A DNA stretch of 64,000 nt from Patescibacteria group bacterium. GTDB taxonomy: Bacteria > Patescibacteriota > Patescibacteriia > UBA2196. The position numbers and the translations under genes are program-made. The stretch spans positions 14,734-78,733 of the forward strand of contig JAQTPI010000004.1 in NCBI GenBank assembly GCA_028748975.1, read 5' to 3'. Position 1 is the first letter of the stretch; every line of letters begins with the position of its first letter. This document shows positions 2,178-51,938 of the stretch, in pieces. The notes beneath the pieces were generated by a model. That model made no database searches. It saw only the letters and a program-made list of their open reading frames with translations, and was not told the DNA's origin.

Positions 2178-2190
2178 CACATAGCTTGCC

Positions 2191-2319: not shown

Positions 2320-2348
2320 GGCCCACTCCTTGGTTTGGTTGTTATTGA

Positions 2349-2489
2349 TTAACCGGATCGCGGATTGCAATCCGGATTACACGAACCGCCCGGGAGACAG
2401 GTCGGGTTGCAATCGTTGTCCGTTGGGAAACAACGATTCTCGCCTTTCCTGAAGTCGGTGCCGGCTGTGACTTCCAGAATTTCGAACAT
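2349..2489 (-). CDS. RiPP precursor peptide A1 (46 aa): MFEILEVTAGTDFRKGENRCFPTDNDCNPTCLPGGSCNPDCNPRSG.
   Basis: Absent from the ORF track. A strong SD (ggaaggaggtgaaaagg) precedes the ATG, which begins 21 nt after the rSAM stop. The core has five Cys with CNP/DC motifs. Confidence 0.65.
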   Translation of the reverse strand: MFEILEVTAGTDFRKGENRCFPTDNDCNPTCLPGGSCNPDCNPRSG

Positions 2490-4040: not shown

Positions 4041-4065
4041 TAATAACAGACGACCTCACCCCCAA

Positions 4066-4088
4066 CCCTCTCCTTGTAAAGGAGAGGG
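4066..4088. repeat. GC-rich hairpin element of family B (ccctctcctt-gta-aaggagaggg), 14 nt upstream of the giant-gene ATG.
   Basis: A near-identical 45-bp copy lies at 31351..31400. The element contains AAGGAG / GGGGGA, which could act as a Shine-Dalgarno for 4102. Confidence 0.6.
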
Positions 4089-7100: not shown

Positions 7101-10100
7101 GGGCGTGAGTTTAGCCGGGTCGCCGGGCGCGCAGACAATTAACCAAGGCGCGAGCGCCATTTACACCATTACAGTTTCCTCGGTTAATGGTTTGGCTGAT
7201 ACAGTTAATCTTACTCTCTCCGGCTGTCCCAGCGGGGCAACTTGCCAGCTTTCGGGCAGTTCCGTGATTTTAAATAATAATTCACAGGGCGTGACTTTGA
7301 CAGTCAGCAATGCCAGCGTTGGCGGACCCTACACTCTAACCATTTCCGGACATGGCGTGGCTTCAAATAAAAACGGCGCCACCACCGTGGATTTGACCGT
7401 GGTTGAGGCCAACTATCCATCGGTTTCCATCTGGGCCATTCCGCAGACAATCGCGCGCGGGCAATCTTCCGTTGTTTCCTGGACTTCCAATAATGCCAGC
7501 AGTGTTGACATAACCAACATTGGCACTGGTCTTGCCACGAGTGGCAACCAGTCGGTGGCGCCGACAGTGACCACGACCTACACGGCCACGGCTTATGGCA
7601 GCGGCGGACGCACGGCCACGGCGAGCGTGACCGTGACCGTGACTAATCCGACAGAAATTTATTGCGGAGACGGAGTTTGTAATGGCGCGGAAACTTGCTC
7701 CACCTGCCCCTCTGACTGCGGAATATGCGTGGGCGGCGGCGGCGACTCTCCGAGCACCCCCACGAATTTAAGCGGTCCTTCCGGCTGTACCACCGACACC
7801 ACGCCAAGCTTCAGTTTTACAGTTTCCGACCCGGATTTTGGCGACAAGGTTGGCTATCAAATTCAAATTGATGACAGCGCCACTTTTGCATCGCCCTTGA
7901 TTGATTTCACCTGGAGCAGCTTGGGTGATACTCCGCAAAACGGCACTTTTGACACGCCAAGTTCCTGCCCCACGCCACTCGGCGGCTATGCTGTCTGCAA
8001 TACGCCTTTGCCGGCCGGCAACTATTATTGGCGCGTGCGCGCTTTGGACAACCACAGTAATTTTTCCTCCTATGAATCCGGCAGCGCTTTTTCCGTGGCG
8101 GCGGTTTGCGGCGGGGGTGGCGGCGTGAACGCGGATTTCACTGTTTGCAAATACAGCGCCGACACTTTTCAATTTTTAAACGCCACCGAGGGCGTCACTG
8201 TGCCAACCTATGGCTGGAATTTTGATGATGGCACGGGTTGCGCCGAAACCGGCTGTACGGCGAGCATTGGCGGCACCACCATTGGCACACGCATTGATCC
8301 GGCGCATAAATTTAATAATAATTATTGGGCCAAACGAATCAAGATTACTTTCAGCAATGGCGGACAGGCGGAAAATTTGGTGGATTTCCCGGTTTTAATC
8401 AAACTTAATGGCAGCCGCATTGATTACACTCAAACCCAAAACAGCGGGCAGGATTTGCGCTTTTTTGACGCGGACGGCGGCACGGAATTGGCTTATGAAA
8501 TTGAAAAATGGAATGAAAGCGGAGATTCTTTTGTCTGGGTGAAAGTGCCACAAATTGACGCCAGTTCTAATTCCGATTACATTTGGTTGTATTATGGCAA
8601 TCCGGCGGCAACGGCTGGCGCCAATGCCGAAAGTGTTTGGAACAGCGGTTATGCCGCGGTTTATCACCTGAAAGAAACTTCCGGTAAACATTATGATTCC
8701 ACGGCGAATAATAATGATTCCGAAAATAATCCAAACGTACAAACACAAGGCAGTGCCGCAGGCAAAATTGACGGCGCGGATGATTTCTTAAAAGAAGTAA
8801 ACGGAGAGGGCGAAGAAACCTCTAGTGATTCCATTACAATTAATGATAGTAATAGTTTGGATTTGACCAATGCTTTGACGATTGAGGCTTGGGTGCGCTC
8901 AGACTATTTGGAAAATCGTGACCGTATTGTGTCTAAGGGTTCTATTTCCCAGACCTATGTTTTGCGGCAAGAAATTTCTGACACCGGTGGTTCTTTCCCA
9001 GGTTCTTTGCATTTTTTTGGCGCTGGTGTTGCTCAAGCCAGAAGTATTTTAACCGCTGGCACTCTTCAATATATAGCGGCCACTTGGGATGGAATTAATG
9101 GCGACCATAAACCCAAACTTTTTAATAATGGTTCGGAAGTCAGTTCTTATTTTGCGCAAACAGCCAAAACAGCACCTATAAATGCAAACACCGAAGTTTT
9201 GACCATTGGCAATATTGATCAGGGTTGGGACGGTATTATTGATGAAATGCGGCTTTCCAATGTGGCGCGCTCCGCGGCCTGGCTCAAAGCGCAGTATCTT
9301 TCCATGAGCGACACGTTTAACACTTTCAGCAGCCAAGAAAGTTTGGGATACGTGATTGACGGAGGCAAAGTGGCGGGGGCGACGGATGAATTAAGAATTA
9401 TGAATCAAGAATTAAGGACGACTGATAACGGGCAACAAACAACCGACAACTTACAACAAATAACCAACAAAAATATTTTTGAAAAGATTTGGGCGGGAAT
9501 TAAAACGGCGGGGAAATGGGCGGTGAATTTATTCAAAGCCAAAGATTCAGAGGCCTTAAGCGCCACCTATTCGGTCATGCTTTCGGTCAATGACCCGGCT
9601 GGCAATGACACGGAAACAAAAGTGGTGAATTTGGCGAGCGTGCCGCTGTGTGAATTCAACCTGACTAATGTTTCTTCCTTGAGTTGCGGACGGGTGGACG
9701 GCGAATGGGAAAAATTTGGCGGTTTCGCTGACGCCGGCGCCTACACGGTGAAAAGATGCGCGGGCAGCGGCTGCAGTGATTTTGACACGGTCAGCGTAAC
9801 CAAGTCCTGTTCCACCTCTTGTTATTTTGAAGATATTGGCGTGGAGCCAAGCACCGCGTATTCATATTACATTTCTTTGCCAACGCAAGGAGTGAAAAAT
9901 TCCACTGACAATCCGGCTTGCGACGGTGCCTCCGCGATTTGTCCGCTCAGCGTCACTACTGCGGTGTGCGGCGTGGAAGGTTCGGACATAGTGACCACAC
10001 GCGCCTGCGGAAAAATTACTTTGATTTGGGACGAAGTGGAGGGTTCAACTATTTATGAAGTTCAAAGGGCGATTGGCGCCAGTGATAATACTTTTACCAC

Positions 10101-10308
10101 GGTGGCGACCTTGGGCGCGGGTACAACGCTTTATGAAGATGAGGACGTGGTTACAGTCAGCACCACCAAACCTGCTAACCAGTTCCGTTATTGGTATCGC
10201 GTGCGTTCGCAGGCAAGCAATGGCCAATGGTCTGATTGGTCAGCGGCCGCGCCGGTTGGCGGCGAGTATTCCTATTGTTACCGCGGGCCGAGCTGGGAGG
10301 AGAGGTAA
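4102..10308 (+). CDS. Giant (2068 aa) cell-surface protein: N-terminal signal anchor, several fibronectin-III-like modules, a CARDB-like module, Cys-rich segments, a DUF2341-like region followed by a LamG/concanavalin-like region, and further Ig-like repeats.
   Basis: One uninterrupted ORF. It begins with the hydrophobic helix MKIKRYKILLVGVILILIAGGFFVI. FN3-like W/Y/T-spaced segments are present, and LPDLVVESVTPP...NTGNASTG resembles CARDB. LVDFPVLIKLNGSRIDY...WVKVP resembles DUF2341, and EAWVRSD...DEMRLSNVARSAAW resembles LamG. GC is about 52%. Confidence 0.8.
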   Translation: MKIKRYKILLVGVILILIAGGFFVIQKSGQEAEAQGLLPLSPPTNVQKNYATTALIDWSWSAPVSGGLPIDYYKVYTGSGGFISDVTGTNYTQPGLNPSTQYSIKVMSCKYGSDPTCTGPYYASTFSSTAYGYTKANTPSNLTVSPSADCLADNYGASGECQLTWSWSANDNSAGTNYYYSTDEGAGAWTTSLSYTETISFDSCRTHTAGSTAHTFYVKAKNGEGEETDTTSLSKTEYNVCDWLEDFVLSHIPPYANQFRATWTPSPNIEIRAALNGGNFQTITNNGTFMAGPDGVWANARNWVDFQWHYVGEAWPPNIIITKEIKALLPQVASVSCSGATTNSLTVTAEGGGLGFPNLFTLLSGVKMSKAVVYGTDDDVGTYSSGYPTSIPLTWTVSNLSPNTSYSFKFISYNQEGTANWETEALTAGSCRTAAAVYPQCGTTTYSPAPPTWTHSSVLVSIPCTEEGGPGCSKSTYTLSRSSNGSGTIVISDIVGNTTECPYNVTNIDKIAPTVNSFTVDDHASDFTSSDTGPVIDWTVADSGGSGLKQVEVWRKTAGGDWILIYTTTDVSGNGPTSGSFTDSVDCLPSHQPYTYGIHVLDNANNIGYENNPIAVTLSNCGGTPTCGSNDNGEGDLLQATCENAPIFGKWNYASDDATGMCWKKDRDDPYLCCGDDSGENWDYFREFFGSFGSYSTDENDNACCNNASDCVFNHTCYDGDANGASFESASCMSGQRYCGGPNVYTWETDADYNFAVCQCLQGSADRWNESGWFGGNQINWSIGGYSQDRCCGDDAGEVFANGVCTTGAALPDLVVESVTPPTGLICMGRSATFSAVIKNTGNASTGAGFANQITLVDTGSCLANSTALTASESKNISCAITPSAAGIKTVMSQADYDDAISESNEDNNGRDTTATIFATPNTPTGLTATGIGATDITWDWDNMSGATSYIILLNGIPVDTVTSSQYIAQDLWGAADYTITVQSYNGCGVSSGAQHTVTRGVSLAGSPGAQTINQGASAIYTITVSSVNGLADTVNLTLSGCPSGATCQLSGSSVILNNNSQGVTLTVSNASVGGPYTLTISGHGVASNKNGATTVDLTVVEANYPSVSIWAIPQTIARGQSSVVSWTSNNASSVDITNIGTGLATSGNQSVAPTVTTTYTATAYGSGGRTATASVTVTVTNPTEIYCGDGVCNGAETCSTCPSDCGICVGGGGDSPSTPTNLSGPSGCTTDTTPSFSFTVSDPDFGDKVGYQIQIDDSATFASPLIDFTWSSLGDTPQNGTFDTPSSCPTPLGGYAVCNTPLPAGNYYWRVRALDNHSNFSSYESGSAFSVAAVCGGGGGVNADFTVCKYSADTFQFLNATEGVTVPTYGWNFDDGTGCAETGCTASIGGTTIGTRIDPAHKFNNNYWAKRIKITFSNGGQAENLVDFPVLIKLNGSRIDYTQTQNSGQDLRFFDADGGTELAYEIEKWNESGDSFVWVKVPQIDASSNSDYIWLYYGNPAATAGANAESVWNSGYAAVYHLKETSGKHYDSTANNNDSENNPNVQTQGSAAGKIDGADDFLKEVNGEGEETSSDSITINDSNSLDLTNALTIEAWVRSDYLENRDRIVSKGSISQTYVLRQEISDTGGSFPGSLHFFGAGVAQARSILTAGTLQYIAATWDGINGDHKPKLFNNGSEVSSYFAQTAKTAPINANTEVLTIGNIDQGWDGIIDEMRLSNVARSAAWLKAQYLSMSDTFNTFSSQESLGYVIDGGKVAGATDELRIMNQELRTTDNGQQTTDNLQQITNKNIFEKIWAGIKTAGKWAVNLFKAKDSEALSATYSVMLSVNDPAGNDTETKVVNLASVPLCEFNLTNVSSLSCGRVDGEWEKFGGFADAGAYTVKRCAGSGCSDFDTVSVTKSCSTSCYFEDIGVEPSTAYSYYISLPTQGVKNSTDNPACDGASAICPLSVTTAVCGVEGSDIVTTRACGKITLIWDEVEGSTIYEVQRAIGASDNTFTTVATLGAGTTLYEDEDVVTVSTTKPANQFRYWYRVRSQASNGQWSDWSAAAPVGGEYSYCYRGPSWEER

Positions 10309-16291: not shown

Positions 16292-16603
16292 ATGAAAAAA
16301 ATAATTGAATATTTTGTTTATATTTTAACTAATAACAAAAAATCAATGTTTTATGTCGGCCAATCAAATAATTTAATTCGTCGGACATGGCAACATAAAC
16401 ACAAACTCATTAATGGTTTTACTAAAAAATATAATCTTGATAAACTTGTTTATTATGAAATTTATGTGACGTTAGAGCAAGCACTAAAGAGGGAAAAACA
16501 ACTTAAGGGTTGGACAAAAGTAAAAAAGATAAATTTAATTAAAAAAATAAATCCCGAACTAAAAGATTTTTCCGATGATTGGTGGCATAAAAATTTGATG
16601 TAG
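16292..16603 (+). CDS. Stand-alone GIY-YIG nuclease domain protein (103 aa).
   Basis: YFVYILTNNKKSMFYVGQSNNLIRRTWQHK ... GFTKKYNLDKLVYYE ... REKQLKGW contains the GIY..YVG, R..QH and conserved E/N hallmarks. It is paralogous to 40046..40357. Confidence 0.7.
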   Translation: MKKIIEYFVYILTNNKKSMFYVGQSNNLIRRTWQHKHKLINGFTKKYNLDKLVYYEIYVTLEQALKREKQLKGWTKVKKINLIKKINPELKDFSDDWWHKNLM

Positions 16604-19407: not shown

Positions 19408-19540
19408 CGAGTTGGAGGACATGGTTTTTAATAGTAATTATTAATTTTAAAAAAATGATAAATAAAAAACGGTTAATTGAAAATGATGTTGAAATTCAAT
19501 TAACCGTTTATTGAGAATCACCAAAAAATTGGTGATGAGA

Positions 19541-19612
19541 GTCGGCGGAGGGATTCGAACCCCCGAACACGGATTTGCAATCCGTGTCCTTAAACCACTC
19601 GGACACGCCGAC
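19541..19612 (-). tRNA. tRNA-Cys (GCA).
   Basis: The reverse complement folds as a cloverleaf: acceptor GTCGGCG, D-arm TGTCCGAGTGGTTTAAGGACA, anticodon stem ACGGA/TCCGT with loop TTGCAAA, and T-arm GGGGGTTCGAATCCC. Confidence 0.8.
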
Positions 19613-19623
19613 AACTCTGTCAG

Positions 19624-19698
19624 TACGCCCGGAAGGATTCGAACCTTCAACCCTTCCCCACAAGAGCGGGGTGCTCTATCCAATTGAGCTACGGGCGC
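19624..19698 (-). tRNA. tRNA with a canonical D- and T-arm but an irregular anticodon stem; the anticodon is probably CTT (Lys).
   Basis: Acceptor GCGCCCG/CGGGCGT, D-arm TAGCTCAATTGGATAGAGC and T-arm GAAGGTTCGAATCCTTC are canonical. The anticodon region CCCCG-CTCTTGT-GGGGA pairs only 3-4 bp, so the anticodon assignment is tentative. Confidence 0.5.
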
Positions 19699-19731
19699 GC
19701 TGCCATGAAATGAATTCGTCACGGCTAGCTT

Positions 19732-19808
19732 TGGCGCCACCTACGGGTTTTGAACCCGTATTCCCCGGATCAATAATCCGAAGTCTTAACCAATTAGATG
19801 AAAGCGGC
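19732..19808 (-). tRNA. tRNA-like gene with an encoded CCA and an atypical anticodon loop (TTATTGA, giving anticodon ATT); possibly a pseudo-tRNA or a non-canonical decoder.
   Basis: Acceptor GCCGCTT/AGGTGGC (two G-U pairs), a weak D-stem, anticodon stem TCGGA/TCCGG, T-arm ACGGGTTCAAAACCCGT, and a 3' GCCA end. A34 with G37 is abnormal. Confidence 0.35.
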
Positions 19809-19827
19809 TCTGCTGAAATAATTTTGT

Positions 19828-19898
19828 AGCGGGCGAGGGACTCGGACCCCAACCTTCGGTGTATCAGACCGAAACTCTGCCAATTGAGCTACGCCCGC
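19828..19898 (-). tRNA. tRNA-Ile (GAT).
   Basis: Acceptor GCGGGCG/CGCCCGC, D-arm TAGCTCAATTGGCAGAGT, anticodon stem TCGGT/ACCGA with loop CTGATAC. The T-arm is somewhat irregular. Confidence 0.7.
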
Positions 19899-19903
19899 AG
19901 TTT

Positions 19904-20054
19904 TGGTGGAGCCGGCAGGATTCGAACCTGCGACCTTTCAAACTCGTAGAATTGGCCAATTTTTCCCTCACGCGCGCTTGGGAAAATTTGGGCAATTTTT
20001 ACCCTCTTTTTTAAGGAGAGAAGTTTGAAAACTCTCCCAACTGAGCTACGGCCC
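19904..20054 (-). tRNA. tRNA with Ala-type identity elements (G3:U70, D-arm TAGCTCAGTTGGGAGAG, encoded CCA), interrupted by an about 85-nt insertion between the two halves of the anticodon stem; intron-containing or disrupted.
   Basis: 5' half GGGGCCGTAGCTCAGTTGGGAGAGTTTTCAAAC, and 3' half GTTTGAAAGGTCGCAGGTTCGAATCCTGCCGGCTCCACCA. The halves TTCAAAC/GTTTGAA pair across an insert that has its own hairpins (ttttccc...gggaaaa; the AATTGGCCAATT palindrome). Confidence 0.55.
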
Positions 20055-20208
20055 CGATTCAACACGAGAACAAAATCGTAAAATAAAGTGACTTTTTTAT
20101 TTTAACAAGGTCTAAAAAACTTGTCAAATGTGGATAAGTAATATAAAATATAATAAGTAACTACCAATAAATAATAAGGGAAAAAATGAATAATCCCAAT
20201 GTTATTTT

Positions 20209-23610: not shown

Positions 23611-24687
23611 TTGATGTTTTTACATAATTATATTCCCAATCCAATTTTACTTGATTTAGGATTTTATCAAATCCGCTGGTATGGCCTTATTTTAGCGTTG
23701 GCCGTGGCTGGCGGATTTTTTATTCTTGCCCGCCTTCGCCGCTACGGTCAAGCCGGCGGCTATGGCGGGCAAGTTTCTGATCTTTTTACCAAAGACAATT
23801 TTTTTAATCTATTATTTTGGGTTGCGATTTGGGGAATTATCGGCGGAAGGTTGGTTCATGTTTTAACTTTTTTTGATTATTACTGGCAGCGGCCGCTGCA
23901 GATACTCGCAATTTGGAACGGGGGAATCGCTTTCTATGGCGTGTTTGCTGGTGGGTTAATTGCGGCAGGGGTTTTGACGCGCCGTGTCATCCTGAGCGAA
24001 GCCCGAATCCGCCAGCTGGCGGAGAGGGCGAAGCCGAAGGATTCCTCATACTTTCCATATGATAAAGGCGAAGGCCCGCCCGCCATGACTTCGTCAAGGC
24101 GAAGTCGGGCGGGGATTCATCGCTCCGCTCGGAATGACAAGAAAAACAAAACCATTATTCATCATTCATTATTCATTATTCTTGATGCCCTCGTCGTCGG
24201 CTTGGCTTTCGGCCAATTCATCGGCCGGTGGGGAAATTGGTTTAATCAGGAGCTTTTTGGAGGGCCAACGAATTTGCCTTGGGGAATTCCGATTGATATT
24301 TGGCATAGGCCAGTCGGCTTGGAAAATTTTACTTACTTTCATCCAATTTTTTTGTATGAGAGTCTGTTTTCTTTGGTTTTGTTTTTGGGGTTGTATTTTT
24401 TATACAAAAAAATACATTGTCATTTCGGGCCGAGACCCGGAATCCAGGAGAGTGGATCCCGGATCGGAGTCCGGGATGACAAGGCGGGTTTTGTTTTCTC
24501 CGCTTTTTTAATCTTCCATTCCACTGCCCGGTTTTTTTTGGAGTTTTTGCGCCTTGACGCGCAGCCGGAGTTTTTGGGTCTGTGCCTTTTCCAGTGGGTG
24601 GCGATAATAGAATTTATTTTGGGGTGGGTTGTGTATTTTTATGTTAGGGTGTGGTATAATAAAAGTAAGCTACGAATTTACGAATAA
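23611..24687 (+). CDS. lgt: Prolipoprotein diacylglyceryl transferase carrying two in-frame palindromic-element insertions.
   Basis: Lgt hallmarks are present (WYGLILALAVAGG, GGRLVHVL, WNGGIAFYGVFAGG, GRWGNWFNQELFGG, FLRLDAQPEF). They are interrupted by an about 50-aa insert (VILSEARIRQ...NDKKNKT) and an about 20-aa insert (GPRPGIQESGSRIGVRDDKAGF), encoded by family-A elements. Confidence 0.85.
   Translation: MMFLHNYIPNPILLDLGFYQIRWYGLILALAVAGGFFILARLRRYGQAGGYGGQVSDLFTKDNFFNLLFWVAIWGIIGGRLVHVLTFFDYYWQRPLQILAIWNGGIAFYGVFAGGLIAAGVLTRRVILSEARIRQLAERAKPKDSSYFPYDKGEGPPAMTSSRRSRAGIHRSARNDKKNKTIIHHSLFIILDALVVGLAFGQFIGRWGNWFNQELFGGPTNLPWGIPIDIWHRPVGLENFTYFHPIFLYESLFSLVLFLGLYFLYKKIHCHFGPRPGIQESGSRIGVRDDKAGFVFSAFLIFHSTARFFLEFLRLDAQPEFLGLCLFQWVAIIEFILGWVVYFYVRVWYNKSKLRIYE
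23984..24141. repeat. Composite of two family-A palindromic elements inserted in-frame in lgt.
   Basis: gtcatcctgagcgaagcc...ccgccagctggcgg...cgaaggattcct and ...ggattcatcgctccgctcggaatgacaa. No stop codons are present in the lgt frame. Confidence 0.75.
24426..24486. repeat. Family-A palindromic element inserted in-frame in lgt (second site).
   Basis: gggccgagacccggaatccaggagagtggatcccggatcggagtccgggatgacaa. Confidence 0.7.
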
Positions 24688-26701: not shown

Positions 26702-27145
26702 ATGGAACAGATTCCAATAAAAAAACCAATAATAAGTTTTAGAGATCTTGATGTTTATCAAAATTCTTATCGAGCAAGTATTGTCGTGATGACCAAAATA
26801 ATTCCCGCACTTCCAGCAAATGAGAAATATGATTTAAAAGATCAAATACAAAGAGCGTGTAAAGCAATTCCGCGTTTAATAGCCGAGGGTTTTGCAAAGA
26901 AACATCAGAAATTTGGTTTTCAGAAGTATCTTGATGATGCAATGGCCGAGTGTAATGAAATGATTGTTTGTATAGAACATGTAAAAGATATTTATAGAAT
27001 TCAAACAGATTTATGCGAAGAATTAATTGATACTTATGATAAGTCTGCAAGACAGCTGTTTAAATTAGGTGAGGCATGGTGCAATTTTAAGAATAGGAGA
27101 CGAATGACGATGCCGAATGACGATACGGGTGGCGACGCCGTATAA
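26702..27145 (+). CDS. Four-helix-bundle protein of the '23S rRNA intervening-sequence protein' family.
   Basis: FRDLDVYQNSYRASIVVMT...IQRACKAIPRLIAEGFAKK...YLDDAMAECNEM matches the family pattern (F.DL.VYQ...R...SIP.NIAEG). Its last about 15 codons are encoded by the right IR arm. Confidence 0.7.
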   Translation: MEQIPIKKPIISFRDLDVYQNSYRASIVVMTKIIPALPANEKYDLKDQIQRACKAIPRLIAEGFAKKHQKFGFQKYLDDAMAECNEMIVCIEHVKDIYRIQTDLCEELIDTYDKSARQLFKLGEAWCNFKNRRRMTMPNDDTGGDAV

Positions 27146-30036: not shown

Positions 30037-30047
30037 TTTTTTAGATT

Positions 30048-30121
30048 CGGAGCGGACGGGACTCGAACCCGCGACCTCTTCCGTGACAGGGAAGCGTTCT
30101 AACCAACTGAACTACCGCTCC
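30048..30121 (-). tRNA. tRNA-Asp (GTC).
   Basis: The reverse complement is GGAGCGGTAGTTCAGTTGGTTAGAACGCTTCCCTGTCACGGAAGAGGTCGCGGGTTCGAGTCCCGTCCGCTCCG, a canonical cloverleaf with anticodon loop CTGTCAC. Confidence 0.9.
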
Positions 30122-30132
30122 AAAATTTTCAT

Positions 30133-30251
30133 CCCCTCCTTTCGAAGGAGGGGTGCCGAGTGAAACGAGGCGGGGTGGTTGTGGTAAAAATAATCACACA
30201 ACCCCTCCGGGTTTCGCTCCGCTCAACCCACCTCCCCTTCGAAAGGGGAGG
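30133..30251. repeat. GC-rich structured block bounded by two family-B hairpins (cccctcc-tttcgaa-ggagggg and cctcccc-ttcgaaa-ggggagg).
   Basis: Direct reading. It is related to the hairpins at 4066, 31373 and 36160. Confidence 0.6.
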
Positions 30252-30303
30252 ATAAAATCACAAAACAATTCTATCAAAATAAGTATAGCAAATCAAATTT
30301 TAT

Positions 30304-31297: not shown

Positions 31298-31447
31298 ATG
31301 ATAAATAACAGATAGACACAGATGTAAAACAGATAGACACAGATGCACAGATGCTGACGACCTCACCCCCGACCCTCTCCTTATAAAGGAGAGGGGGACG
31401 GAATCTGTGTATTTGTGTAAATCTGTAAAAAATCTGTGATAATTTGT
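31298..31447 (-). promoter_or_regulatory. Structured infC-rpmI intergenic leader, possibly an L20 autoregulatory site. It holds CACAGAT heptamer arrays in inverted orientation around the family-B hairpin ccctctcctt-ataa-aggagaggg.
   Basis: A 21-bp direct repeat (acagatagacacagatg x2) occurs at 31308..31345. The hairpin is at 31373..31395, and atctgtg x4 at 31402..31435. Confidence 0.35.
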
Positions 31448-35217: not shown

Positions 35218-35274
35218 TAAATAATAATTCAATAATTTGATAATTCAATAACGAGATCCTTCGCTTTGCTCAGG

Positions 35275-36762
35275 ATGACAATCACTAAAAAAATCCATTT
35301 TATCGGCATTGGCGGGACGGCCATGGCAGCACTCGCCGTGGCTTTTAAACGCGCCGGATTTATTGTGACCGGTTCGGACTCGGGTAATATTTTTCCGCCG
35401 ATGAGCACGCATTTAAAAAAAAATGGAATTAAATATGGCTTGGGGTTTAAAGAAAAAAATTTAGGCCAGCCGAACGAAGTGGTTCTTGGCAATGCCCATG
35501 TCAGTAATTTAAATCCGGAAATCGCGATGGCTAAGAAAAGAGGATTGCCAATCATTCACTTTCCGCGGTTGATAGAAAAATATCTGATTAAGAAAAATTC
35601 AGTGGTAGTGGCAGGAACTTATGGTAAAACAACCATCACGGCCATGGCAGCCTGGCTTTTGGAAAAGGCGGGTAAAAATCCAAATTATATGCTCGGCGGC
35701 ATTCCGATTGATTTGGAAAACGGCGCACGATTAATAAAATCTGATTGGTCAGTCACCGAAGGCGATGAATATCCGGCAGCCTCTCCCTGGGACAGCGCGC
35801 CAAAATTTAAATATTATCATCCCAAATTTTTAATTTTGACTTCGGCGGAATGGGATCACATGGATGTTTATAAAACTAAAGAAAGTTATTTGGAGGTTTT
35901 TCGGAAATTGGTAGCAAGCGTGCCAGAAAATGGATTGATTGTGGCAAAGGCGGGCGGAGAGAATTTGGCTGGTGTTTTGAAGGGGGCGAAGTGTAAAATA
36001 ATTTATTATAGCAATCAGAAATTAGAAAACAGAAATCAGGATGAAAAATTATATTATATTAGTGGTGTGGAGGTAATTGGTGATAAGACTAAATTTATAG
36101 TAAAGAAACGCCTATCGGCGAAAATAAATAACCACCCCCGCTCCGTTGCTACGGAGCGACCCCTCCTTGAAAAGGAGGGGATGACCACCACCGTTGGCGA
36201 GTTTGAGACAAAACTTTTAGGCGAATTTAATTTGGAAAATTGGTGTGCGGCAGTGGCGCTGGCGATAGAGTTGAGAATTCCATTGAAGAAAATTCAGGCC
36301 GGAGTGAAAAGTTTTTCCGGAGTGAAAAGGAGATTGGAGATTCGCGGAGTGAAAAAAGGCGTGACCATAATTGATGATTTCGCGCATAATCCGGCGAAAG
36401 CGCGGCAGTCGGTTTTGGCCTTGCGCCGGCATTTTCCCAAAAATAAAATTTACGTAATTTTTGAACCAAATCGCGGTGGCCGATCGGAAAAATGTCTATC
36501 GGGATATAATAAAGTTTTTGCCGGTATAACAAAAGTTTTTATTTCAAAATTAACCGAATATCCGCCCAAAAAGGGAGTGAAAGATGTTTCGGGTAAGGAA
36601 TTGGTAAAGTATTTGAAAAAGACGCACGGAGGCGTAACTTATGAACCAGAAACGAAGGAACTAATAAACAAGTTGAAGAAAATTGCTAAAAGCGGCGATG
36701 TGATCGCGTTTTTGGGGTCGAGGAATTTTGGAGGTGTACTTGAACGGTTGTTGTCATCCTGA
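35275..36762 (+). CDS. Mur ligase family protein (MurC/Mpl-like) with an in-frame hairpin-element insertion; its stop codon lies inside a family-A element.
   Basis: KKIHFIGIGGTAMAALAVAF N-terminus, GTYGKTTITAM P-loop, DEYPAASP, and a C-terminal Mur ligase domain. ATG 35275 is preferred over the TTG track start at 35266. Confidence 0.8.
   Translation: MTITKKIHFIGIGGTAMAALAVAFKRAGFIVTGSDSGNIFPPMSTHLKKNGIKYGLGFKEKNLGQPNEVVLGNAHVSNLNPEIAMAKKRGLPIIHFPRLIEKYLIKKNSVVVAGTYGKTTITAMAAWLLEKAGKNPNYMLGGIPIDLENGARLIKSDWSVTEGDEYPAASPWDSAPKFKYYHPKFLILTSAEWDHMDVYKTKESYLEVFRKLVASVPENGLIVAKAGGENLAGVLKGAKCKIIYYSNQKLENRNQDEKLYYISGVEVIGDKTKFIVKKRLSAKINNHPRSVATERPLLEKEGMTTTVGEFETKLLGEFNLENWCAAVALAIELRIPLKKIQAGVKSFSGVKRRLEIRGVKKGVTIIDDFAHNPAKARQSVLALRRHFPKNKIYVIFEPNRGGRSEKCLSGYNKVFAGITKVFISKLTEYPPKKGVKDVSGKELVKYLKKTHGGVTYEPETKELINKLKKIAKSGDVIAFLGSRNFGGVLERLLSS
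36125..36185. repeat. Two GC hairpins (cgctccgt-tgct-acggagcg and family-B cccctcctt-gaaa-aggagggg) inserted in-frame in the Mur ligase gene (encoding NHPRSVATERPLLEKEGM).
   Basis: Direct reading. The reading frame is maintained. Confidence 0.65.
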
Positions 36763-45305: not shown

Positions 45306-48300
45306 ATGTTCCGTTGTCAAAATTACCATGCTCAAAAGACAGAAAACCACGCTCAAGAAAAGAGTCGTGGTTTTATTTCTTTAACCGAGGCGGCGGAGCT
45401 ATGCACTTACTCACAGGAATATCTATCACTTTTGGCCAGACGGGGGGAACTTCGGGCGCAGAAGTTTGGCAACAACTGGTTTACTAAAACTAAATGGCTG
45501 AAAAAATACGTGGCAGAACACGCCGAAGGCACCATCCTTAATGGCAAGGGAAAATTTTTGGCGAAAGAAAAGATGGCCATGGATTTTAGGAGTTTTAGAG
45601 AAGAAGTTGAGGATTTGATTATGACAGCGAAGAAAAAAACAGTAGCGGTTGGCAGAGGCGGATTGGTGGCCGCGGTGGCATTAGCAATGGTGACCGGAGC
45701 GATTTTGGTCAAACCAAATTATGTGAGAGATTTTGCGCTGACGGAAATTAAATTGGCGCGCATTGGAGTTGGTGAAATTAAAAATATTTTGTGGAGCGAT
45801 GGCGTGATTCGGTTTGGAGTACAGATGAAAGAGGTGGTGCTGGGCATGAAGGAAGATTTTTTAGTAGCTGATAATTTATCGTCTGACCCTCTCCAAACTT
45901 CCTCCCTAGCAAGGGGAAGAGCTTACGGACTAGTGGCGGGAGCAAAGACCGATGAAATTTGGAAAAATTTTGTTGGTAAACTTAATCGAATAAAGATTTT
46001 GAATGTCAACATGGCGCAAAATTTTGAAAATTCCGATCAGGAAATTTATTTGGTACATAATTATTGGCAAAAAATTGGAGGACTGGCAGATAATTTCATT
46101 CCGATTTTTTCTTTTGTAAAAAGAGAGAGCTCACAAATTATCGATGGCGCGGCAAAAATTATTGGCAAAGCCGGAGAGAGAATTGATCGCTCGACCGCTA
46201 ATTTTGGCGGAAAAATTGGCGAGTGGTTTTCATCTTTCCAAAAAACAGAATGGGATCCACAATTGTTAAGTCAGTTAGCAAAGAAAACCCAAGAGACACA
46301 GATTGTTTATCAAACGAATAACATAATCAACAACACAACTTTGGTCAGTGGAAATAAAACAACTGCCGGGCCGGGCGTAATTGACACACAGGGAACAACC
46401 GGCATTAACGGCGCAACTGGCAAAACTGGCAGCCAAGGGCCACGCGGTGAAAAAGGTGAAACCGGGCCACAAGGATTACAGGGAATACAAGGACCAGCCG
46501 GTATCTGTGGTGGAACATGTTCGGGTAGTGGCGGTTCGGTTACCAATATTTACAATGTGGGCGTGCAAGGCGCCACGGCCCATGATGGCGCGGGTAGTTC
46601 GCTGGCCACTAAATATTTGGGCGCAGGCGAACTCTCGGTTTCCGGCAACACCAGCTTAGTTGGCGTCTTGACAGTGGGGGGCGGCGCTTCTTTTAGCAGT
46701 GGCGTGTCCATTGCCGGCATCTTGAATGGCGGCAACGCGACTTTTGGCGGTGTTTCCATGGCCACATTGAATGCCACAACCACCAATGCTGACAGTCTTT
46801 ATATTTTTAATAATGCCACGACCACGGGCGCGCAATATATCGGCGGAGATTTAACTGTGGCTGGTACTGCGGTTTTCACTGGTGGCAGTTCTTTCAATTC
46901 CATCACGACGACTGATACGGCCTACATTGGTGGCAGAAGTTTTTTGATGGGCAACGTCGGCATCGGCACCACAAATGCTACGGCCACCCTGCTTGTTATT
47001 AGCGACCAATATGAAGGCGCAAAATTCGTAGTGGCCTCATCCACGGCTTTGGCTACGCCGAGTTTGTATGTTGATAAAGGAGGCAACGTAGGCATTGGCA
47101 AAACTAATCCCGAATTTAAATTGGATGTTGCGGGAATAATAAATGCCACCTCTTTGTATGTTGATGGCAGTCCCTATGTTGGTAGCCAATGGACAACAGC
47201 TGTTAATGATATTTATTATAATACTGGTAATGTAGGCATTGGCATTACTAACCCAGCTGCTTTGTTTGAAATCGCCACAACCACAACTGACTGGGCCGCG
47301 GGAACTCGTCCTTTAATGCGCGTGGCCACGAAGACCACGGAGGCGTTGTATGTGGGAGCGAGCGGGAATGTGGGAATTGGGACGACCGTGCCGACATCCA
47401 CTTTGCAGGTGGCTGGTAATTTCAATATCACCACCACTTCGGCTTTGACGACTAATCAAAGTGTTTTCTTTGTGAACAATGCGACGAAGAACGTGGGAAT
47501 TGGCACCACCGCGCCAGGAGCTAAATTAGAAGTCAATGGCTCAATCCTTCCAAGTTCAAGTTTGGCCAATGATTTGGGAAGCGGAACTCGCTATTATAAC
47601 AATGGCTATATTTATACACTTGATCAGGGTGGCGGCGTTATTCAAAATACTACTTATATAAAATCTCAAGGCAGTTTGGGTATATTTCCTTTTAGCGGCG
47701 GCACCACCGCAACTTTAAGAATTGGCTCCTTGCCAGGCCAAGGCACAACTTATTCTTATAAAGATATTTATTTTGACACAGCGGATGTTAATAGAATGTA
47801 TATTGCCAATGCGGGCAACGTCGGCATCGGCACGACTAATCCACAGGGCGCATTGTCCGTGATGAATGGTAATGTGGGCATTGGCACCACCAATCCCGGC
47901 GCTTTATTTGAAATCGCTACGACCACGACTGACTGGGCCGCGGGAACTCGTCCTTTAATGCGCGTGGCCACGAAGACAACAGAAGCTTTTTATATCGCGG
48001 CAAGCGGAAACGTCGGCATTGGGACGACGAATCCGCAATACAAATTTGATATTGCTGGCTATGCTTCTTCTACCCAAGATATTTACGCGGCGAACCTTGG
48101 TTATAATGAAGGCATGTTGGAAGACCCAACCATTATTGACGCAACCGGTGCGGCAATTAATATTTCAGCAGCTTATGTTTTAATCCGTTCCAGTAGTGAT
48201 TGGACTGGTTATAAACTAGAAAGACATTTGGTGCCGGCAAATACCGCTTTAGCTTTAACCGATAATGATCTTAACTACGTTTATATTAATTATAATAGCG

Positions 48301-51300
48301 GTTCGCCAATTTACGCCGCTACCACCAATCGTGATGTAATTAATAACTCCAATGCCGTGCCAGTATCAAGAATTATGATGACTTCCGGCAATATTGAATA
48401 CAAAATTAATTATGGCGCGATTGGTAAATCAGTGGCCATCCGCAATTTTGACCGCGTGATGCGCACCCGCGGCATAACCGGCATTGAAAGAGAAAGCGGC
48501 TTAGCCATTTCTGAAAGTGCTTCTCGTGTTTTGTCTGTTACTTCGGGTTACGTCTGGTTTGGCATGGATAGAATTACAATTGATGCCATGACTGTCGGCA
48601 CTGGCGGAGCCACGGCAGAAGTTTGGTATCATTCGGGCGGCAATTGGGTTGCTTCTTCCACGCCGACTTATGAACATTTAAGTTATGATAATGGTACAAA
48701 TTTAACCACGCTTACCGCCAACCGTTACGCCGTGAACTGGGTTTTTCGCAATGTGGCCAATGGAGCCGAAATTGATATTATTTTGGGTTCTGGTGATTAT
48801 ACTTTAGCCCAAGCTGAAGCCAGCATGCTACCATCTTTGCCAGAAGAGGTTACTAATTTTTATGCTTTGGTTGCTAGAATTATTATTAAGAAAAATAACA
48901 CAGTGGCTTACGCCATTGAAAATGAAGCAGATTTTTCTTTCCGGCAGGCCGCGGTAACCATTCATAATGATTTGTCTTCAATTCAGGGTGGCACCACAGG
49001 CGAGTATTATCACTTAACCGCGTCCGAACAAATAGAACTGAACGGCTGGCTGGATGATGCCATTTTGACTTCCACTGGTGGTTTAAGTGTTAATTCCGCC
49101 ACTACCACGGGCTCATTTTATTTTCCCGGCGGCGTAGTTATGGAAAACGGTAATGTGGGAATTGGAACAACAGTGCCGACTTCCACCTTGCAGGTGGCTG
49201 GTAATTTTAATATCACCACCACTTCGGCTTTGACTACAAATGAAAGTGTTTTCTTTGTGAACAATGCAACAAAGAATGTGGGAATTGGGACGACAACCCC
49301 CCTAACTTCATTAAGTGTTCAGGGAGCGCCGGGAAAGCCAGTAATGAACATTGCTTCTTCCACCGGAGCTTCATTACTATATGTGGGTGAAGATGGAAAG
49401 GTCAATATTGGTGGTGAATTTACAGGGGCATACAAATCATCATTAAATGTAACAGGTAATGCGGTTGTGACCGGTATCATTTATGGCCCGAGTTATGGGG
49501 CAACAATTAATATGTCCACCGGCAAGTTAACAAACACCAGTTCGGCAATGGAATTTGATTGGACTAACGGCTTATGGTCTACTTATCGCACTAACATTAC
49601 TTTGTATCCTTACGGGGCATATGATGAAGGCGGGGGAAAAATTATACTTAAAGGCAATGTTGGCATCGGGACGACAAATCCACAAGGTGCCTTGTCGGTG
49701 ATGAATGGTAATGTGGGCATTGGCATGACGAATCCTATAGCAGTATTTGAAATTGCTACCACCTCCAATGATTGGGTTGGTGGGAGTAATGTTCCTTTAA
49801 TGCGGGTGTCTACCAAAACGACGGAAGTTTTCTATATAAATGCTACGGGCAATGTCGGCATCGGGACAACTGCACCTTTGGCAAAACTTAACGCTTCCTC
49901 CACCACGGCGCAGTTAAGATTAACCAATGGCGAAACTGTCAGCACTAATTTTACTGATTTTAATGTTCTCTCAGCCGGTGATTTGATTATTGACCCACAA
50001 GGCACGGCTACGACTACTTTTGTGCGGAGTAATCTGAAAGTGGAGGGAAATGCGACGACAACAGGAAGTTTGGTGGTAGGCAATCCGACTGGCGGCGGCA
50101 TGGGTGCCGGTACAATTAATGCCGAACACACCCTTTATGTGAATGGCGCAGATTACGCGGAATATTTTTTAACTAATGATGTTGACTTGCAACCAGGCGA
50201 AGCAGTTTGTATTGATGTCACTAATGACAAAGCGGTTAAAAGATGCTACCGTGGCGCTGACCCGGACATCATTGGTATCGTTTCTACTAAGCCGGCGCTT
50301 GTTGGTAATAATCAAGAATTTGACGGGGAAACCGTGATTGTCGGTTTAATCGGCCAGGTGCCAGCTTTTGCTTCCGTTGAAAACGGAATTATTCGGCCGG
50401 GCGATTCTTTAACTTCGGCTTCCTCCACCCCGGGCTATTTAATGAAAGCGAGCGCGGGCGATTCCACCGTGGGCGTGGCTTTGACCGGACTTCAAAATGG
50501 CACTGGTGGTATTAATGTTTTAATTTCCAGAAGGAATAAATCTTTGACCGTGGAACAAGTGGAAGAACAGGTGACGAAGCGCGTGGCCGACATGAAAATT
50601 GAGGATGAAGTGAACATGATGGTCTCGGACGCCGTGAGGACACTGGGTGTTGATGAACAAATTAAACTTTTGGATTTGAAAGTGGTGGAGTTGGAAGAAA
50701 AAGAGAAGCTAGCGGTTAAATCATTTGACGAGGTTACAGCCAATAATTTAAAAATTATTACTTTAGCTGAAATAGAAGAATTAAAAGCGAAAAATATTAT
50801 GACGGAAAAGATAACCGCTGATATGGCTCAAGCCACAACTGGCAATTTCCAAGAATTGGTGCTCGGGACAAGTGAAGAGAGAATAGAGAATAGCGAAGAG
50901 CAGGCTGCAACGACGGCGACGACAACCAATGAAGGGGAAAGAGAGAAGAGCGAAGAGTTATTGGTAAACAACAAACAAGTGCGGATTACGGTGATTGACG
51001 ATCCAGATGATAGTGAAGTCAGAATTAAAATCTCCGGCGGGGCGGAATTTGGCGGCACGGTTAAGGTGGTGAATTTGGAAGTGGGTGGTAAAATTACAAT
51101 TAAGGGCGGGGCGGAATTTTTGGGTGAAGCTACTTTCAGAAATAATTTGAATCTGGAAAGTGCTTTAACCCGAACCTATCAAGAAAAGAAAGATGAAATG
51201 TTAAAAATTGGCGACGCGGTTTATATTTCCGGCGACAATGAAGTGGCCAGAGCTTTTGCCGACATTGTTGACGGAAGCGGCATGTTTAAACCAGCCATAG

Positions 51301-51938
51301 GCATAGTAATTGGGTTTGAGGATAAAAATACGGGCGAAACGAAATCCCTTGTTGCCGGCGCTCCGCGGGACAACATCACTGTGAGGGTTGCAATTGGCGG
51401 CACGATTGGCGGATTTAGTAACCTTTTGCCGGGCGTGACCTACTATTTATCTGATGTGGAAACCGCGATTTTGGCTAATAAGACTACCGCCGAGATTGGT
51501 GACGGTGAATTTAGTGCCATTAGTTCGCTGACCAATTCTCCGGCGCAAGAAGTCGGCGTCTTTTTCCAGCCACTGGCAGTGGCCGAATCCACCAGCACCT
51601 TACTAATTATGCCTTCGCTTGTGTATCAGGAATACAACAAAGAAATGAGTTTAGCGCCAGCGGAATACGAACCAATTTATGTAGAGAATTTAAATTCGGA
51701 GATTAACAACCAGCCAGTTTCACCAAGAGTGGAGGAACAGCCAATAATAGATAATCCACAGTCAATCACTGACAGCACGCCAGCAACAACCACCGACGCA
51801 ATTACGGCCACTTCCACTCCGGTGATTGAAGAAATTACACCACCAGTCACAGAAGAAATCGTGTCGGCAGAGGAGCCGTTGGTAATAACCGAGGCGCCGC
51901 CAGTGGGGGAGGTGGTAGTGGAGGTACCGGTGGAATAA
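45306..51938 (+). CDS. Giant (2210 aa) fibre-like surface protein: N-terminal excisionase-type HTH-like region, one TM helix, a collagen Gly-X-Y tract, a long array of tail-fibre-like GNVGIGTTNP repeats and a C-terminal intramolecular-chaperone (peptidase S74-like) region.
   Basis: N-terminus ISLTEAAELCTYSQEYLSLLARRGELRAQKFGNNWF resembles the HTH_17 pattern. TM helix VAAVALAMVTGAILV. Collagen-like GPRGEKGETGPQGLQGIQGPAG. More than 15 repeats of GNVGIGTT.P...L.V / ALFEIATTTTDWAAGTRPLMRVATKTTEA. C-terminus ...DYAEYF...DPDIIGIVSTKPALVGNN.... Confidence 0.8.
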   Translation: MFRCQNYHAQKTENHAQEKSRGFISLTEAAELCTYSQEYLSLLARRGELRAQKFGNNWFTKTKWLKKYVAEHAEGTILNGKGKFLAKEKMAMDFRSFREEVEDLIMTAKKKTVAVGRGGLVAAVALAMVTGAILVKPNYVRDFALTEIKLARIGVGEIKNILWSDGVIRFGVQMKEVVLGMKEDFLVADNLSSDPLQTSSLARGRAYGLVAGAKTDEIWKNFVGKLNRIKILNVNMAQNFENSDQEIYLVHNYWQKIGGLADNFIPIFSFVKRESSQIIDGAAKIIGKAGERIDRSTANFGGKIGEWFSSFQKTEWDPQLLSQLAKKTQETQIVYQTNNIINNTTLVSGNKTTAGPGVIDTQGTTGINGATGKTGSQGPRGEKGETGPQGLQGIQGPAGICGGTCSGSGGSVTNIYNVGVQGATAHDGAGSSLATKYLGAGELSVSGNTSLVGVLTVGGGASFSSGVSIAGILNGGNATFGGVSMATLNATTTNADSLYIFNNATTTGAQYIGGDLTVAGTAVFTGGSSFNSITTTDTAYIGGRSFLMGNVGIGTTNATATLLVISDQYEGAKFVVASSTALATPSLYVDKGGNVGIGKTNPEFKLDVAGIINATSLYVDGSPYVGSQWTTAVNDIYYNTGNVGIGITNPAALFEIATTTTDWAAGTRPLMRVATKTTEALYVGASGNVGIGTTVPTSTLQVAGNFNITTTSALTTNQSVFFVNNATKNVGIGTTAPGAKLEVNGSILPSSSLANDLGSGTRYYNNGYIYTLDQGGGVIQNTTYIKSQGSLGIFPFSGGTTATLRIGSLPGQGTTYSYKDIYFDTADVNRMYIANAGNVGIGTTNPQGALSVMNGNVGIGTTNPGALFEIATTTTDWAAGTRPLMRVATKTTEAFYIAASGNVGIGTTNPQYKFDIAGYASSTQDIYAANLGYNEGMLEDPTIIDATGAAINISAAYVLIRSSSDWTGYKLERHLVPANTALALTDNDLNYVYINYNSGSPIYAATTNRDVINNSNAVPVSRIMMTSGNIEYKINYGAIGKSVAIRNFDRVMRTRGITGIERESGLAISESASRVLSVTSGYVWFGMDRITIDAMTVGTGGATAEVWYHSGGNWVASSTPTYEHLSYDNGTNLTTLTANRYAVNWVFRNVANGAEIDIILGSGDYTLAQAEASMLPSLPEEVTNFYALVARIIIKKNNTVAYAIENEADFSFRQAAVTIHNDLSSIQGGTTGEYYHLTASEQIELNGWLDDAILTSTGGLSVNSATTTGSFYFPGGVVMENGNVGIGTTVPTSTLQVAGNFNITTTSALTTNESVFFVNNATKNVGIGTTTPLTSLSVQGAPGKPVMNIASSTGASLLYVGEDGKVNIGGEFTGAYKSSLNVTGNAVVTGIIYGPSYGATINMSTGKLTNTSSAMEFDWTNGLWSTYRTNITLYPYGAYDEGGGKIILKGNVGIGTTNPQGALSVMNGNVGIGMTNPIAVFEIATTSNDWVGGSNVPLMRVSTKTTEVFYINATGNVGIGTTAPLAKLNASSTTAQLRLTNGETVSTNFTDFNVLSAGDLIIDPQGTATTTFVRSNLKVEGNATTTGSLVVGNPTGGGMGAGTINAEHTLYVNGADYAEYFLTNDVDLQPGEAVCIDVTNDKAVKRCYRGADPDIIGIVSTKPALVGNNQEFDGETVIVGLIGQVPAFASVENGIIRPGDSLTSASSTPGYLMKASAGDSTVGVALTGLQNGTGGINVLISRRNKSLTVEQVEEQVTKRVADMKIEDEVNMMVSDAVRTLGVDEQIKLLDLKVVELEEKEKLAVKSFDEVTANNLKIITLAEIEELKAKNIMTEKITADMAQATTGNFQELVLGTSEERIENSEEQAATTATTTNEGEREKSEELLVNNKQVRITVIDDPDDSEVRIKISGGAEFGGTVKVVNLEVGGKITIKGGAEFLGEATFRNNLNLESALTRTYQEKKDEMLKIGDAVYISGDNEVARAFADIVDGSGMFKPAIGIVIGFEDKNTGETKSLVAGAPRDNITVRVAIGGTIGGFSNLLPGVTYYLSDVETAILANKTTAEIGDGEFSAISSLTNSPAQEVGVFFQPLAVAESTSTLLIMPSLVYQEYNKEMSLAPAEYEPIYVENLNSEINNQPVSPRVEEQPIIDNPQSITDSTPATTTDAITATSTPVIEEITPPVTEEIVSAEEPLVITEAPPVGEVVVEVPVE
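45343..45380 (+). promoter_or_regulatory. Intragenic hairpin plus U-tract (aaaaccacg-N14-cgtggtttt atttct) 38 nt into the giant ORF; candidate attenuator, conserved in the paralogue at 53779..53816.
   Basis: The same 9-bp stem and trailing T-run occur in both genes within about 88%-identical 5' coding sequence. Confidence 0.45.

Follow-up and report, generated by a model that had tools for sequence, protein, structure and literature searches.

Why does a Mur ligase gene of a Patescibacteria group bacterium carry, in the middle of its reading frame, two adjacent, GC-rich and perfect hairpins? We addressed this question in a 64,000-nt stretch of DNA (positions 14,734 to 78,733 of contig JAQTPI010000004.1, assembly GCA_028748975.1), referred to here as the window; positions are those of the window unless another stretch is named. 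The original prediction had placed such a hairpin pair in the ligase open reading frame (ORF) and had suggested that strong RNA hairpins within a coding region could pause ribosomes or attract RNases. Both hairpins are present and in frame, at 36139-36158 and 36160-36180. We find that they are not two independent hairpins; together they are the 3′ two-thirds of a 72-nt dispersed palindromic mosaic element. The insert is very probably a non-autonomous, selfish palindromic element, similar to repetitive extragenic palindromic (REP) sequences and bacterial interspersed mosaic elements (BIMEs) or to Rickettsia palindromic elements (RPEs), that the gene tolerates as an in-frame passenger.

A repeat copy in a Mur ligase loop

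The intragenic copy spans 36109-36180 on the plus strand, 72 nt that make up 24 codons (282-305, R282-G305) and encode the peptide RLSAKINNHPRSVATERPLLEKEG. The hairpin pair does belong to an insertion, as had been proposed, but the inserted unit is larger than the 36125-36185 interval that had been given for it. At its 5′ end is a mini-hairpin, CGCC-TATC-GGCG (CGCCTATCGGCG, 36109-36120), a lineage-specific extension common to L001, the L002 Mur copy, L129-L131, L134 and L136 (L numbers denote stretches of DNA from other sources). An A-rich spacer, AAAATAAAT (36121-36129, read ATA-AAT-AAC), leads to the box AACCACCCC (36130-36138), which is the tag of the element and encodes N-H-P. The box is followed by hairpin A (cgctccgt-tgct-acggagcg, 36139-36158), a perfect 8-bp stem whose sequence varies and whose structure is conserved among copies, then by a single A as linker (36159), and finally by hairpin B, CCCCTCCTT-GAA-AAGGAGGGG (36160-36180), which has 9 bp and a 3-nt loop. 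The left arm of hairpin B resembles an anti-Shine-Dalgarno (anti-SD) sequence and the right arm an SD sequence. The non-palindromic stretch 5′ of hairpins A and B is CGCCTATCGGCGAAAATAAATAACCACCCC (36109-36138), and NHPRSVATERPLLEKEGM corresponds to codons 289-306 (36130-36183) of the 498-aa ORF. Because the spacer holds TAA in two frames, spacer and box are read as INNHP in both intragenic copies that have them, the one in the Mur ligase and one in an alanine racemase gene of L134 that is described below.

The predicted folds are stable. Hairpin A alone reaches -13.5 kcal/mol (z -5.0) and hairpin B (cccctcctt-gaa-aaggagggg) alone -14.8 kcal/mol; together they fold as adjacent stem-loops at -34.1 kcal/mol (z -4.25, with 0 of 200 shuffles equally stable), and the entire 72-nt element reaches -36.9 kcal/mol (z -7.3). 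No terminator-like site was found in 35900-36400; there is no U-run, hairpin B being followed by ATGACCACC, and the missing U-run rules out an intrinsic terminator for the Mur copy. Searches of the window against Rfam at gathering thresholds returned only tRNAs and tmRNA, and with permissive E-values the interval 36080-36210 gave only chance-level matches (E >= 1).

The gene that holds the insert encodes an essential enzyme of the cell wall and is intact (35266-36762, plus strand, 498 aa), and its product is identical to an NCBI protein (P0001). All three Pfam domains of the family, Mur_ligase, Mur_ligase_M and Mur_ligase_C (3/3), are found in the ORF. The top NCBIfam profiles are TIGR01082 murC (284.7, cut-off 335.1) and TIGR01081 mpl (226.3, cut-off 388.7); given that both scores fall under their cut-offs, we leave the substrate at MurC/Mpl-type. 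The assignment as a MurC/Mpl-type ligase is matched by a predicted MurC-like fold: an AlphaFold2 (AF2) model built on 113 homologues has an overall predicted local distance difference test score (pLDDT) of 93.5 and a predicted template-modelling score (pTM) of 0.92, and outside the insert it aligns to MurC 1P3D with a template-modelling (TM) score of 0.81-0.87. The gene order SmpB-ArgRS-Mur-FtsW is kept in all related contigs retrieved, which establishes the positional orthology of the Mur genes compared below.

A proposed check was whether the insert falls in a surface loop, and the AF2 model, a predicted structure, places it in one: residues 283-306 form a low-pLDDT loop that joins two beta-strands, 274-282 and 307-315. 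The pLDDT of this loop is about 50-75 (75, 51 and 72 in successive blocks) and falls below 50 at residues 299-303 (PLLEK). Residues from about 250 to 316 are also the part of the protein that sequence search leaves unaligned to solved MurC chains. In an alignment of 28 sequences, the same loop (columns about 460-520) holds unrelated inserts in P0005, P0007 and P0012, so it has been colonised independently more than once; the modelled loop and the alignment together point to a permissive, indel-prone site. The loop peptides of these three proteins (VIPAQAGI..., ...RLRGNDN) are typical of the CGTC-tagged REP family.

The comparison with orthologues, chosen in advance as the test that could overturn an insertion, shows that the segment is not shared as ordinary coding sequence. 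In 25 of the 28 aligned orthologues, nothing resembling it lies between the "KTxFxxxK" strand and "xxIGxFxTxLLG". In the three closest orthologues the segment is present and can be recognised as a copy of the repeat. In L001, the closest (80% amino acid identity), it reads AACCACCCC-TCA-CCCCTCCTTGAAAAGGAGGGG: hairpin B is identical to that of the window, and TCA stands in place of the 21-nt hairpin A segment, a net difference of 18 nt or six codons. In L002 (about 70% identity), CGCCTATCGGCG is followed by a variant hairpin B, TCTCCCCCTT-CTT-AAGGGGGAGA.

Such inserts are not restricted to these genes. Among eight orthologous Mur genes with DNA available, every GC-rich perfect hairpin but one overlaps, in whole or in part, columns of the alignment that are missing from the majority of these genes; the one that does not is a stem of 7 bp in L003, where the columns are common to all eight. 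Two stretches with 90% DNA identity, L124 and L127, differ in their Mur genes by hairpin inserts of 30 nt and of 65+13 nt (78 nt), which indicates that inserts of this kind turn over quickly.

The same architecture in the window, in relatives and across phyla

Hairpin B had been assigned to a family with members elsewhere in this DNA, and a search for its pattern bears this out, with matches at 4067, 30133, 30231, 31374 and 36160 and none in 100 shuffles. The window thus holds five hairpins of this family in 64 kb, with 0 expected; all copy counts for this genome are counts within the window. The match at 30231 carries two mismatches that compensate each other. Hairpin A likewise belongs to a family, one that is defined by structure and not by sequence.

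The second copy with the complete box, hairpin A and hairpin B (box-A-B) architecture is intergenic and lies beside tRNA-Asp, at 30133-30180 on the minus strand. It is part of an imperfect 140-nt palindrome (30123-30262; -70.1 kcal/mol, z -7.2) of the kind formed by REPINs, in which the partner hairpin B′ occupies 30231-30251. This palindrome has a hairpin B at both ends and box plus hairpin A modules within, and the tRNA-Asp gene (30047-30122, minus strand) directly adjoins it. Two further intergenic copies, both on the plus strand, are of a sister class with the box ACCTCACCC. One, at 4053-4088, has the linker ccaa and the hairpin CCCTCTCCTT-GTA-AAGGAGAGGG, and ends 13 nt 5′ of the ATG of a 2068-aa ORF; the other, at 31360-31395, has the linker ccga and the hairpin CCCTCTCCTT-ATA-AAGGAGAGGG.

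The evidence that the Mur insert is one 72-nt copy of a dispersed mosaic element comes from the recurrence of its non-palindromic flank together with hairpin B. The 30-nt left part, a 2-5-nt linker and hairpin B are found almost exactly in L002 at 6188-6242, in an intergenic position, and the same left part with hairpin B occurs at unlinked loci in related metagenomes (L129, L131, L133, L134 and L136). In L134, a copy lies in frame in an alanine racemase gene (1036-2442, minus strand, contig Ga0233421_10000013), where it encodes ...PIGEINNHPLPLLEKEGS... and is part of a mosaic of ~130 nt with an inverted box-A-B unit. The same racemase gene has a second hairpin-B-like insert further downstream (LTPDPQP...LLGKERG). 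Some intergenic copies are followed by T-runs (L133, L136). Several copies lie just 5′ of start codons, where, judging from its sequence, the AAGGAGG arm could act as a Shine-Dalgarno sequence.

The Lgt gene of the window (23611-24687) carries two in-frame palindromic inserts from other repeat families. The first, at about 23985-24140, is a palindrome of ~156 nt, GTCATCCTGAGCGAAGC...CGGAATGACA (-76.8 kcal/mol, z -5.5), that encodes VILSEARIRQ...SARNDKK; the second, at about 24430-24495, is a dimer like those of CGTC-tagged REPs and encodes HCHFGPRPGIQESGSRIGVRDDK. The Pfam LGT match in this gene is broken into two stretches.

The family extends well beyond the relatives of this bacterium. Scanning one genome per GTDB species with the hairpin B pattern yielded at least 120 stretches, and 147 hairpin B matches were analysed. 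Among the matches listed are Bacteroidota, including the cultured Hymenobacter psychrophilus, Gracilimonas and Robertkochia; Cyanobacteria (Nostoc, Scytonema PCC 10023, Rivularia); Nitrospirota, Acidobacteriota, and Gamma- and Betaproteobacteria (Thiomargarita, Permianibacter); and Chloroflexota, Planctomycetota, Verrucomicrobiota and about a dozen lineages of the candidate phyla radiation (CPR). In 114 of the 147 matches listed, an exact copy of one of three boxes is found no more than 45 nt from the hairpin: AACCACCCC, which goes with CCCCTCCTT stems, in 48; CCTCACCC, which goes with CCTCTCCTT stems, in 43; and CCTCCCC in 23. The interval between box and hairpin B is filled either by a linker of 2-6 nt or by a GC-rich hairpin ending in ...CA. 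Of the distinct long linkers among the matches listed, 34 of 36 reach a folding energy of at least -3 kcal/mol in stability, and do so with a wide variety of stem sequences. The insert in the window (AACCACCCC, hairpin A, a single A, hairpin B) matches this box-A-B architecture exactly.

Structural constraint acts on the two-hairpin architecture throughout the family. When the 36 long-linker copies were aligned with MAFFT, all eight pairs of hairpin A were seen to have changed on both sides, and the covariation score was 0.210, compared with 0.075 in shuffled alignments (0 of 500 reached 0.210) and 0.055-0.089 when the pairing partners were slid. This result is not circular, because hairpin A lies outside the search pattern. 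The invariance of hairpin B, on the other hand, follows from how the copies were ascertained and is uninformative either way. A 9-mer, (A/C)ACCACCCC, is invariant in the 36 aligned copies and at the Mur copy.

The copies fall into two cognate half-types, AACCACCCC with CCCCTCCTT-NNN-AAGGAGGGG and CACCACCCC with CCCCTCCT-CGGGC-AGGAGGGG, and these pair head-to-head or tail-to-tail, like the Y and Z REPs of BIMEs. Heterodimers of both half-types are found in L025, L059, L079, L134 and L136, in phyla as far apart as Betaproteobacteria and Patescibacteria. Inverted dimers occur in L010, L059, L077, L093, L134 and L136 and at 30123-30262 of the window; the Mur copy is a singleton. In a metagenome-assembled genome (MAG) of Thiomargarita sp. 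(L114, 7128-7330) there is a head-to-tail tandem array with a 41-nt period, the unit being hairpin B+TTG+GGGGTGGTT+AAGTTCCT.

Insertion into reading frames also recurs. In other CPR lineages, in-frame copies are found in genes for Dus (Nomurabacteria), FemAB (Moranbacteria), Lgt (Andersenbacteria), MgsA/RarA and a beta-CASP RNase (Magasanikbacteria); another lies in the gene for a cyanobacterial Ser/Thr kinase. Across genes hairpin B is translated in all three frames, as PLLEKEG, SPSLVRR and PPYQGG, so it is not the peptide as such that is conserved. The exact box together with hairpin B is present in 23 stretches of IMG/VR viral contigs. A BLASTN search with the 52-nt consensus against PLSDB plasmids and GenBank phages gave no match, to which the low-complexity filter may have contributed. 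We found no publication on the element in the literature searched, subscription journals being mostly outside its reach.

Taken together, these observations allow a wider proposal, which we put forward tentatively and hold with a good deal less confidence than the account of the Mur insert itself. The insert may belong to a hitherto undescribed superfamily that crosses phyla. Its members would combine a 9-nt box rich in C, a hairpin that covaries but is free in sequence, and an SD:anti-SD-like hairpin that does not vary. The superfamily would spread horizontally, with copies on viral contigs as well, form BIME-like dimers of two cognate types and colonise coding sequences, especially in reduced CPR genomes.

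What keeps the insert in place

We favour the following account of the Mur copy. One copy of the element would have entered the loop in a common ancestor of the lineages of the window, L001 and L002, and the hairpin A module would have been added later in the window lineage, in frame and with a net gain of 18 nt. Selection would purge a copy only where it causes a frameshift, brings in a stop or upsets the structure, and the Mur copy would persist for that reason: it is in frame, free of stops and located in a permissive loop, and can therefore be tolerated. The insert would thus be a passenger and not a device that serves the ligase. Its perfect stems would be kept by processes at the level of the element: the copies may have spread recently, may convert one another, or may be selected for being recognised by the mobiliser. 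Pausing of ribosomes or attraction of RNases, as first suggested, is then not needed to account for the retention of the hairpins; the element appears to behave as a tolerated selfish passenger.

How the element moves is a matter of conjecture. Given the lack of target-site duplications and the dependence on hairpins, movement might involve a single-strand, hairpin-recognising mechanism of the HUH/Y1 type, or recombination or template switching. Our best guess, by analogy with REP/RAYT and IS200/IS605, is hairpin-recognising single-strand mobilisation.

Several observations weigh against this account. No Y1/RAYT or other transposase is found among the 20 ORFs of the window that were scanned with Pfam, the rest of the genome being outside that scan. 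Nor does any gene recur beside the elements: in an all-versus-all BLASTP comparison of 1549 ORFs lying within 2.5 kb of 120 loci, the largest cluster covers five loci. With no mobilising gene found, we infer mobility from the distribution of the copies only. No target-site duplication flanks the Mur copy or the polymorphic inserts of L124 and L127, and no clean empty site marks the boundaries of the insertion. That hairpin A was gained in the window lineage, and not lost in L001, is a choice between two taxa only; the sister copies argue for gain, because 7 of 7 other distinct copies with the same 5′ extension are without hairpin A. Finally, synonymous sites in the insert are conserved to an unexpected degree. 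Between the window and L001, 0 of 11 codons of the box and hairpin B differ synonymously, compared with 107 of 357 (30%) across the gene (P about 0.02), and in L002 the stem of hairpin B stays perfect through two pair changes, relative to the window, that compensate each other. We attribute the synonymous identity to homogenisation at the level of the element or to recent conversion, although local selection may also be responsible, and the identity and the compensatory changes together could instead mean that a nucleic-acid function is selected.

The last point is the core of one rival explanation, that the hairpins are a selected cis-acting RNA element in the Mur mRNA: a translational pause that helps domains to fold, a site for RNases or processing, a barrier against 3′ exonucleases, or an internal start made up of an SD sequence and AUG. 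Beyond the conserved synonymous sites and compensatory changes, this explanation can point to the stable fold and to an SD-like arm followed by ATG (AAGGAGGGGAUG, 36172-36183). Yet most orthologues of the same gene do without the segment, close relatives vary in the presence or absence of such inserts, and the same element is found between genes and within unrelated ones, in either orientation and in each of the three frames. In addition, a terminator-like tail is missing and only 2-3 nt separate the SD from the ATG, so that we consider an RNA function of this sort unlikely. A role for the peptide, as an adaptive loop extension that offers, for example, a new interaction surface, seems to us somewhat less likely again. 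The residues NNHP...PLLEKEGMTTT are conserved between the window and L001, and the loop, being an indel hot spot, may be functionally plastic. The low pLDDT of the insert, however, means that no defined structure is predicted for it; the six-residue block RSVATE is there in one close relative and missing from another; elsewhere this DNA is read in other frames to give unrelated peptides; and peptide selection does not explain why synonymous sites are conserved too.

The two remaining rivals concern where the hairpins came from. Palindromes can in principle arise in place, by template switching or quasi-palindrome correction within an ancestral coding segment and with no mobile element involved, and perfect stems with compensatory changes are what hairpin-templated repair is expected to leave behind. 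What largely refutes such an origin is that the non-palindromic 30 nt, CGCCTATCGGCGAAA(A)TAAATAACCACCCC, are also present at several unlinked loci; moreover, several phyla have the box-A-B architecture in common and most orthologues lack the segment. We regard it as very improbable. Least credible of all is an assembly or sequencing artefact. The window does come from a MAG, and chimeric joins can result from repeats. But the ORF is intact and in frame and has an identical counterpart in P0001, the element was assembled at the same site independently in JGI and ENA samples (L001 and L002), and the family is present in the genomes of cultured isolates. The dispersed, tolerated palindromic element thus remains the explanation that we prefer.

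Palindromic repeats that colonise essential genes in frame are famous from Rickettsia, and the same process operates in Patescibacteria. In this window no fewer than two genes carry such inserts (those for the Mur ligase and Lgt), along with several housekeeping genes in related lineages. To our knowledge, in-frame insertion of palindromic repeats has not been reported before in this phylum, and the cross-phylum box-A-B family may itself be undescribed. The annotation of CPR proteins is affected because inserts of 6-45 residues owe their presence to repeats, not to function; the same process has consequences for aligning CPR markers and inferring trees from them, and for ideas on the ways in which proteins acquire new loop sequence. 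A box-A-B family common to distant phyla and without a known transposase is also a target for finding a new mechanism of mobilisation. Should the superfamily be real, the near-identity of its box and hairpin B between Cyanobacteria and Patescibacteria would imply either a conserved mobilising enzyme or the exploitation of a machine that all hosts possess, for example the ribosome or the replisome.

Other features of the window deserve mention. The Pfam scan of the 20 ORFs turned up only two genes of note, a small stand-alone GIY-YIG nuclease gene (16292-16603) and a gene for a four-helix-bundle protein of the 23S rRNA intervening sequence (IVS) type (26702-27145). Small GIY-YIG and 23S-IVS gene families are often multi-copy or selfish in CPR and other phyla. 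A cluster of tRNA genes lies on the minus strand at 19539-20055; it includes a 149-nt Rfam tRNA match at 19907-20055 that ARAGORN does not call and that possibly holds an intron or insert, and an ARAGORN tRNA at 19623-19698 with an undetermined 2-nt anticodon. Three giant ORFs are found at 4102-10308 (2068 aa), at 45306-51938 (2210 aa) and from 53730 to beyond 64000 (>3423 aa, running off the window). The region at 53-64 kb looked free of ORFs because the ORF list omits those that run off the window; we rejected an ORF-free or recoded region, since a single ORF of >3423 aa occupies it.

Comparison with known repeat systems

Small hairpin repeats of several kinds invite comparison with the element. 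The small dispersed repeats (SDRs) of cyanobacteria, said to have been described in Nostocales by Elhai et al. in Genome Res. in 2008, are reportedly mobile, hairpin-forming repeats of about 20-30 nt that are nested and occasionally intragenic. Compared by description, our element is like them in being a tiny hairpin-forming repeat with some intragenic copies.

The resemblance to REPs, BIMEs and REPINs is closer. These are GC-rich stem-loops of 20-40 nt with an unpaired conserved tag at one end, and they occur as singletons, head-to-head or tail-to-tail dimers and two-hairpin mosaics, some of them intragenic (PMC3733652; Bertels & Rainey 2011, PMC3116915); all of this holds for the element as well. 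REPs tagged with GTAG or CGTC form superfamilies found in eight phyla (Di Nocera et al. 2013, PMC3733652); in the same account, intragenic copies add 20-30 residues, and CGTC REPs have no known dedicated transposase. In contrast to the REPs described there, the tag here is a C-rich box of 9 nt (AACCACCCC, CACCACCCC or ACCTCACCC) and not GTAG or CGTC, the stems are polypyrimidine/polypurine and SD:anti-SD-like, a second, covarying hairpin stands between tag and stem, and no RAYT was found among the ORFs scanned. The box-A-B family is absent from the REP families listed in the consulted text of PMC3733652. We also considered membership of the CGTC-tagged REPs, given that two copies in the window end in ...GGGGGACG. 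CGTC on the opposite strand is restricted to the two ACCTCACCC-class copies of the window; cross-phylum copies lack the tag, and published CGTC stems start with A-T pairs (PMC3733652), so we rejected it.

[quoted passage not shown] They differ in that they are typically 70-300 bp long (PMC10969869); here no target-site duplication is seen, no parent insertion sequence is known and the unit is far shorter. The inverted boxes at the ends of dimers do resemble terminal inverted repeats, but the boxes are inverted in dimers only.

It is the RPEs that match the behaviour of the Mur copy best in kind. RPEs are palindromic repeats that are inserted in frame into conserved Rickettsia genes (Ogata et al. 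2000, Science 290:347, as summarised in PMC10969869 and PMC3733652). As with the RPEs of those summaries, dispersed palindromes lie in frame in conserved, apparently functional genes of a reduced genome, in a manner compatible with the protein fold, and they are found between genes as well. By the same summaries, RPE-1-type repeats measure about 100-150 bp and belong to Rickettsia, whereas the element described here is 51-72 nt long, modular (a box and one or two short hairpins) and found in Patescibacteria. Its core box-A-B architecture is moreover common to many phyla, which sets it apart from RPEs as far as these summaries describe them. The element works like an RPE but, its host being a Patescibacteria bacterium and not a Rickettsia, is not a member of that family.

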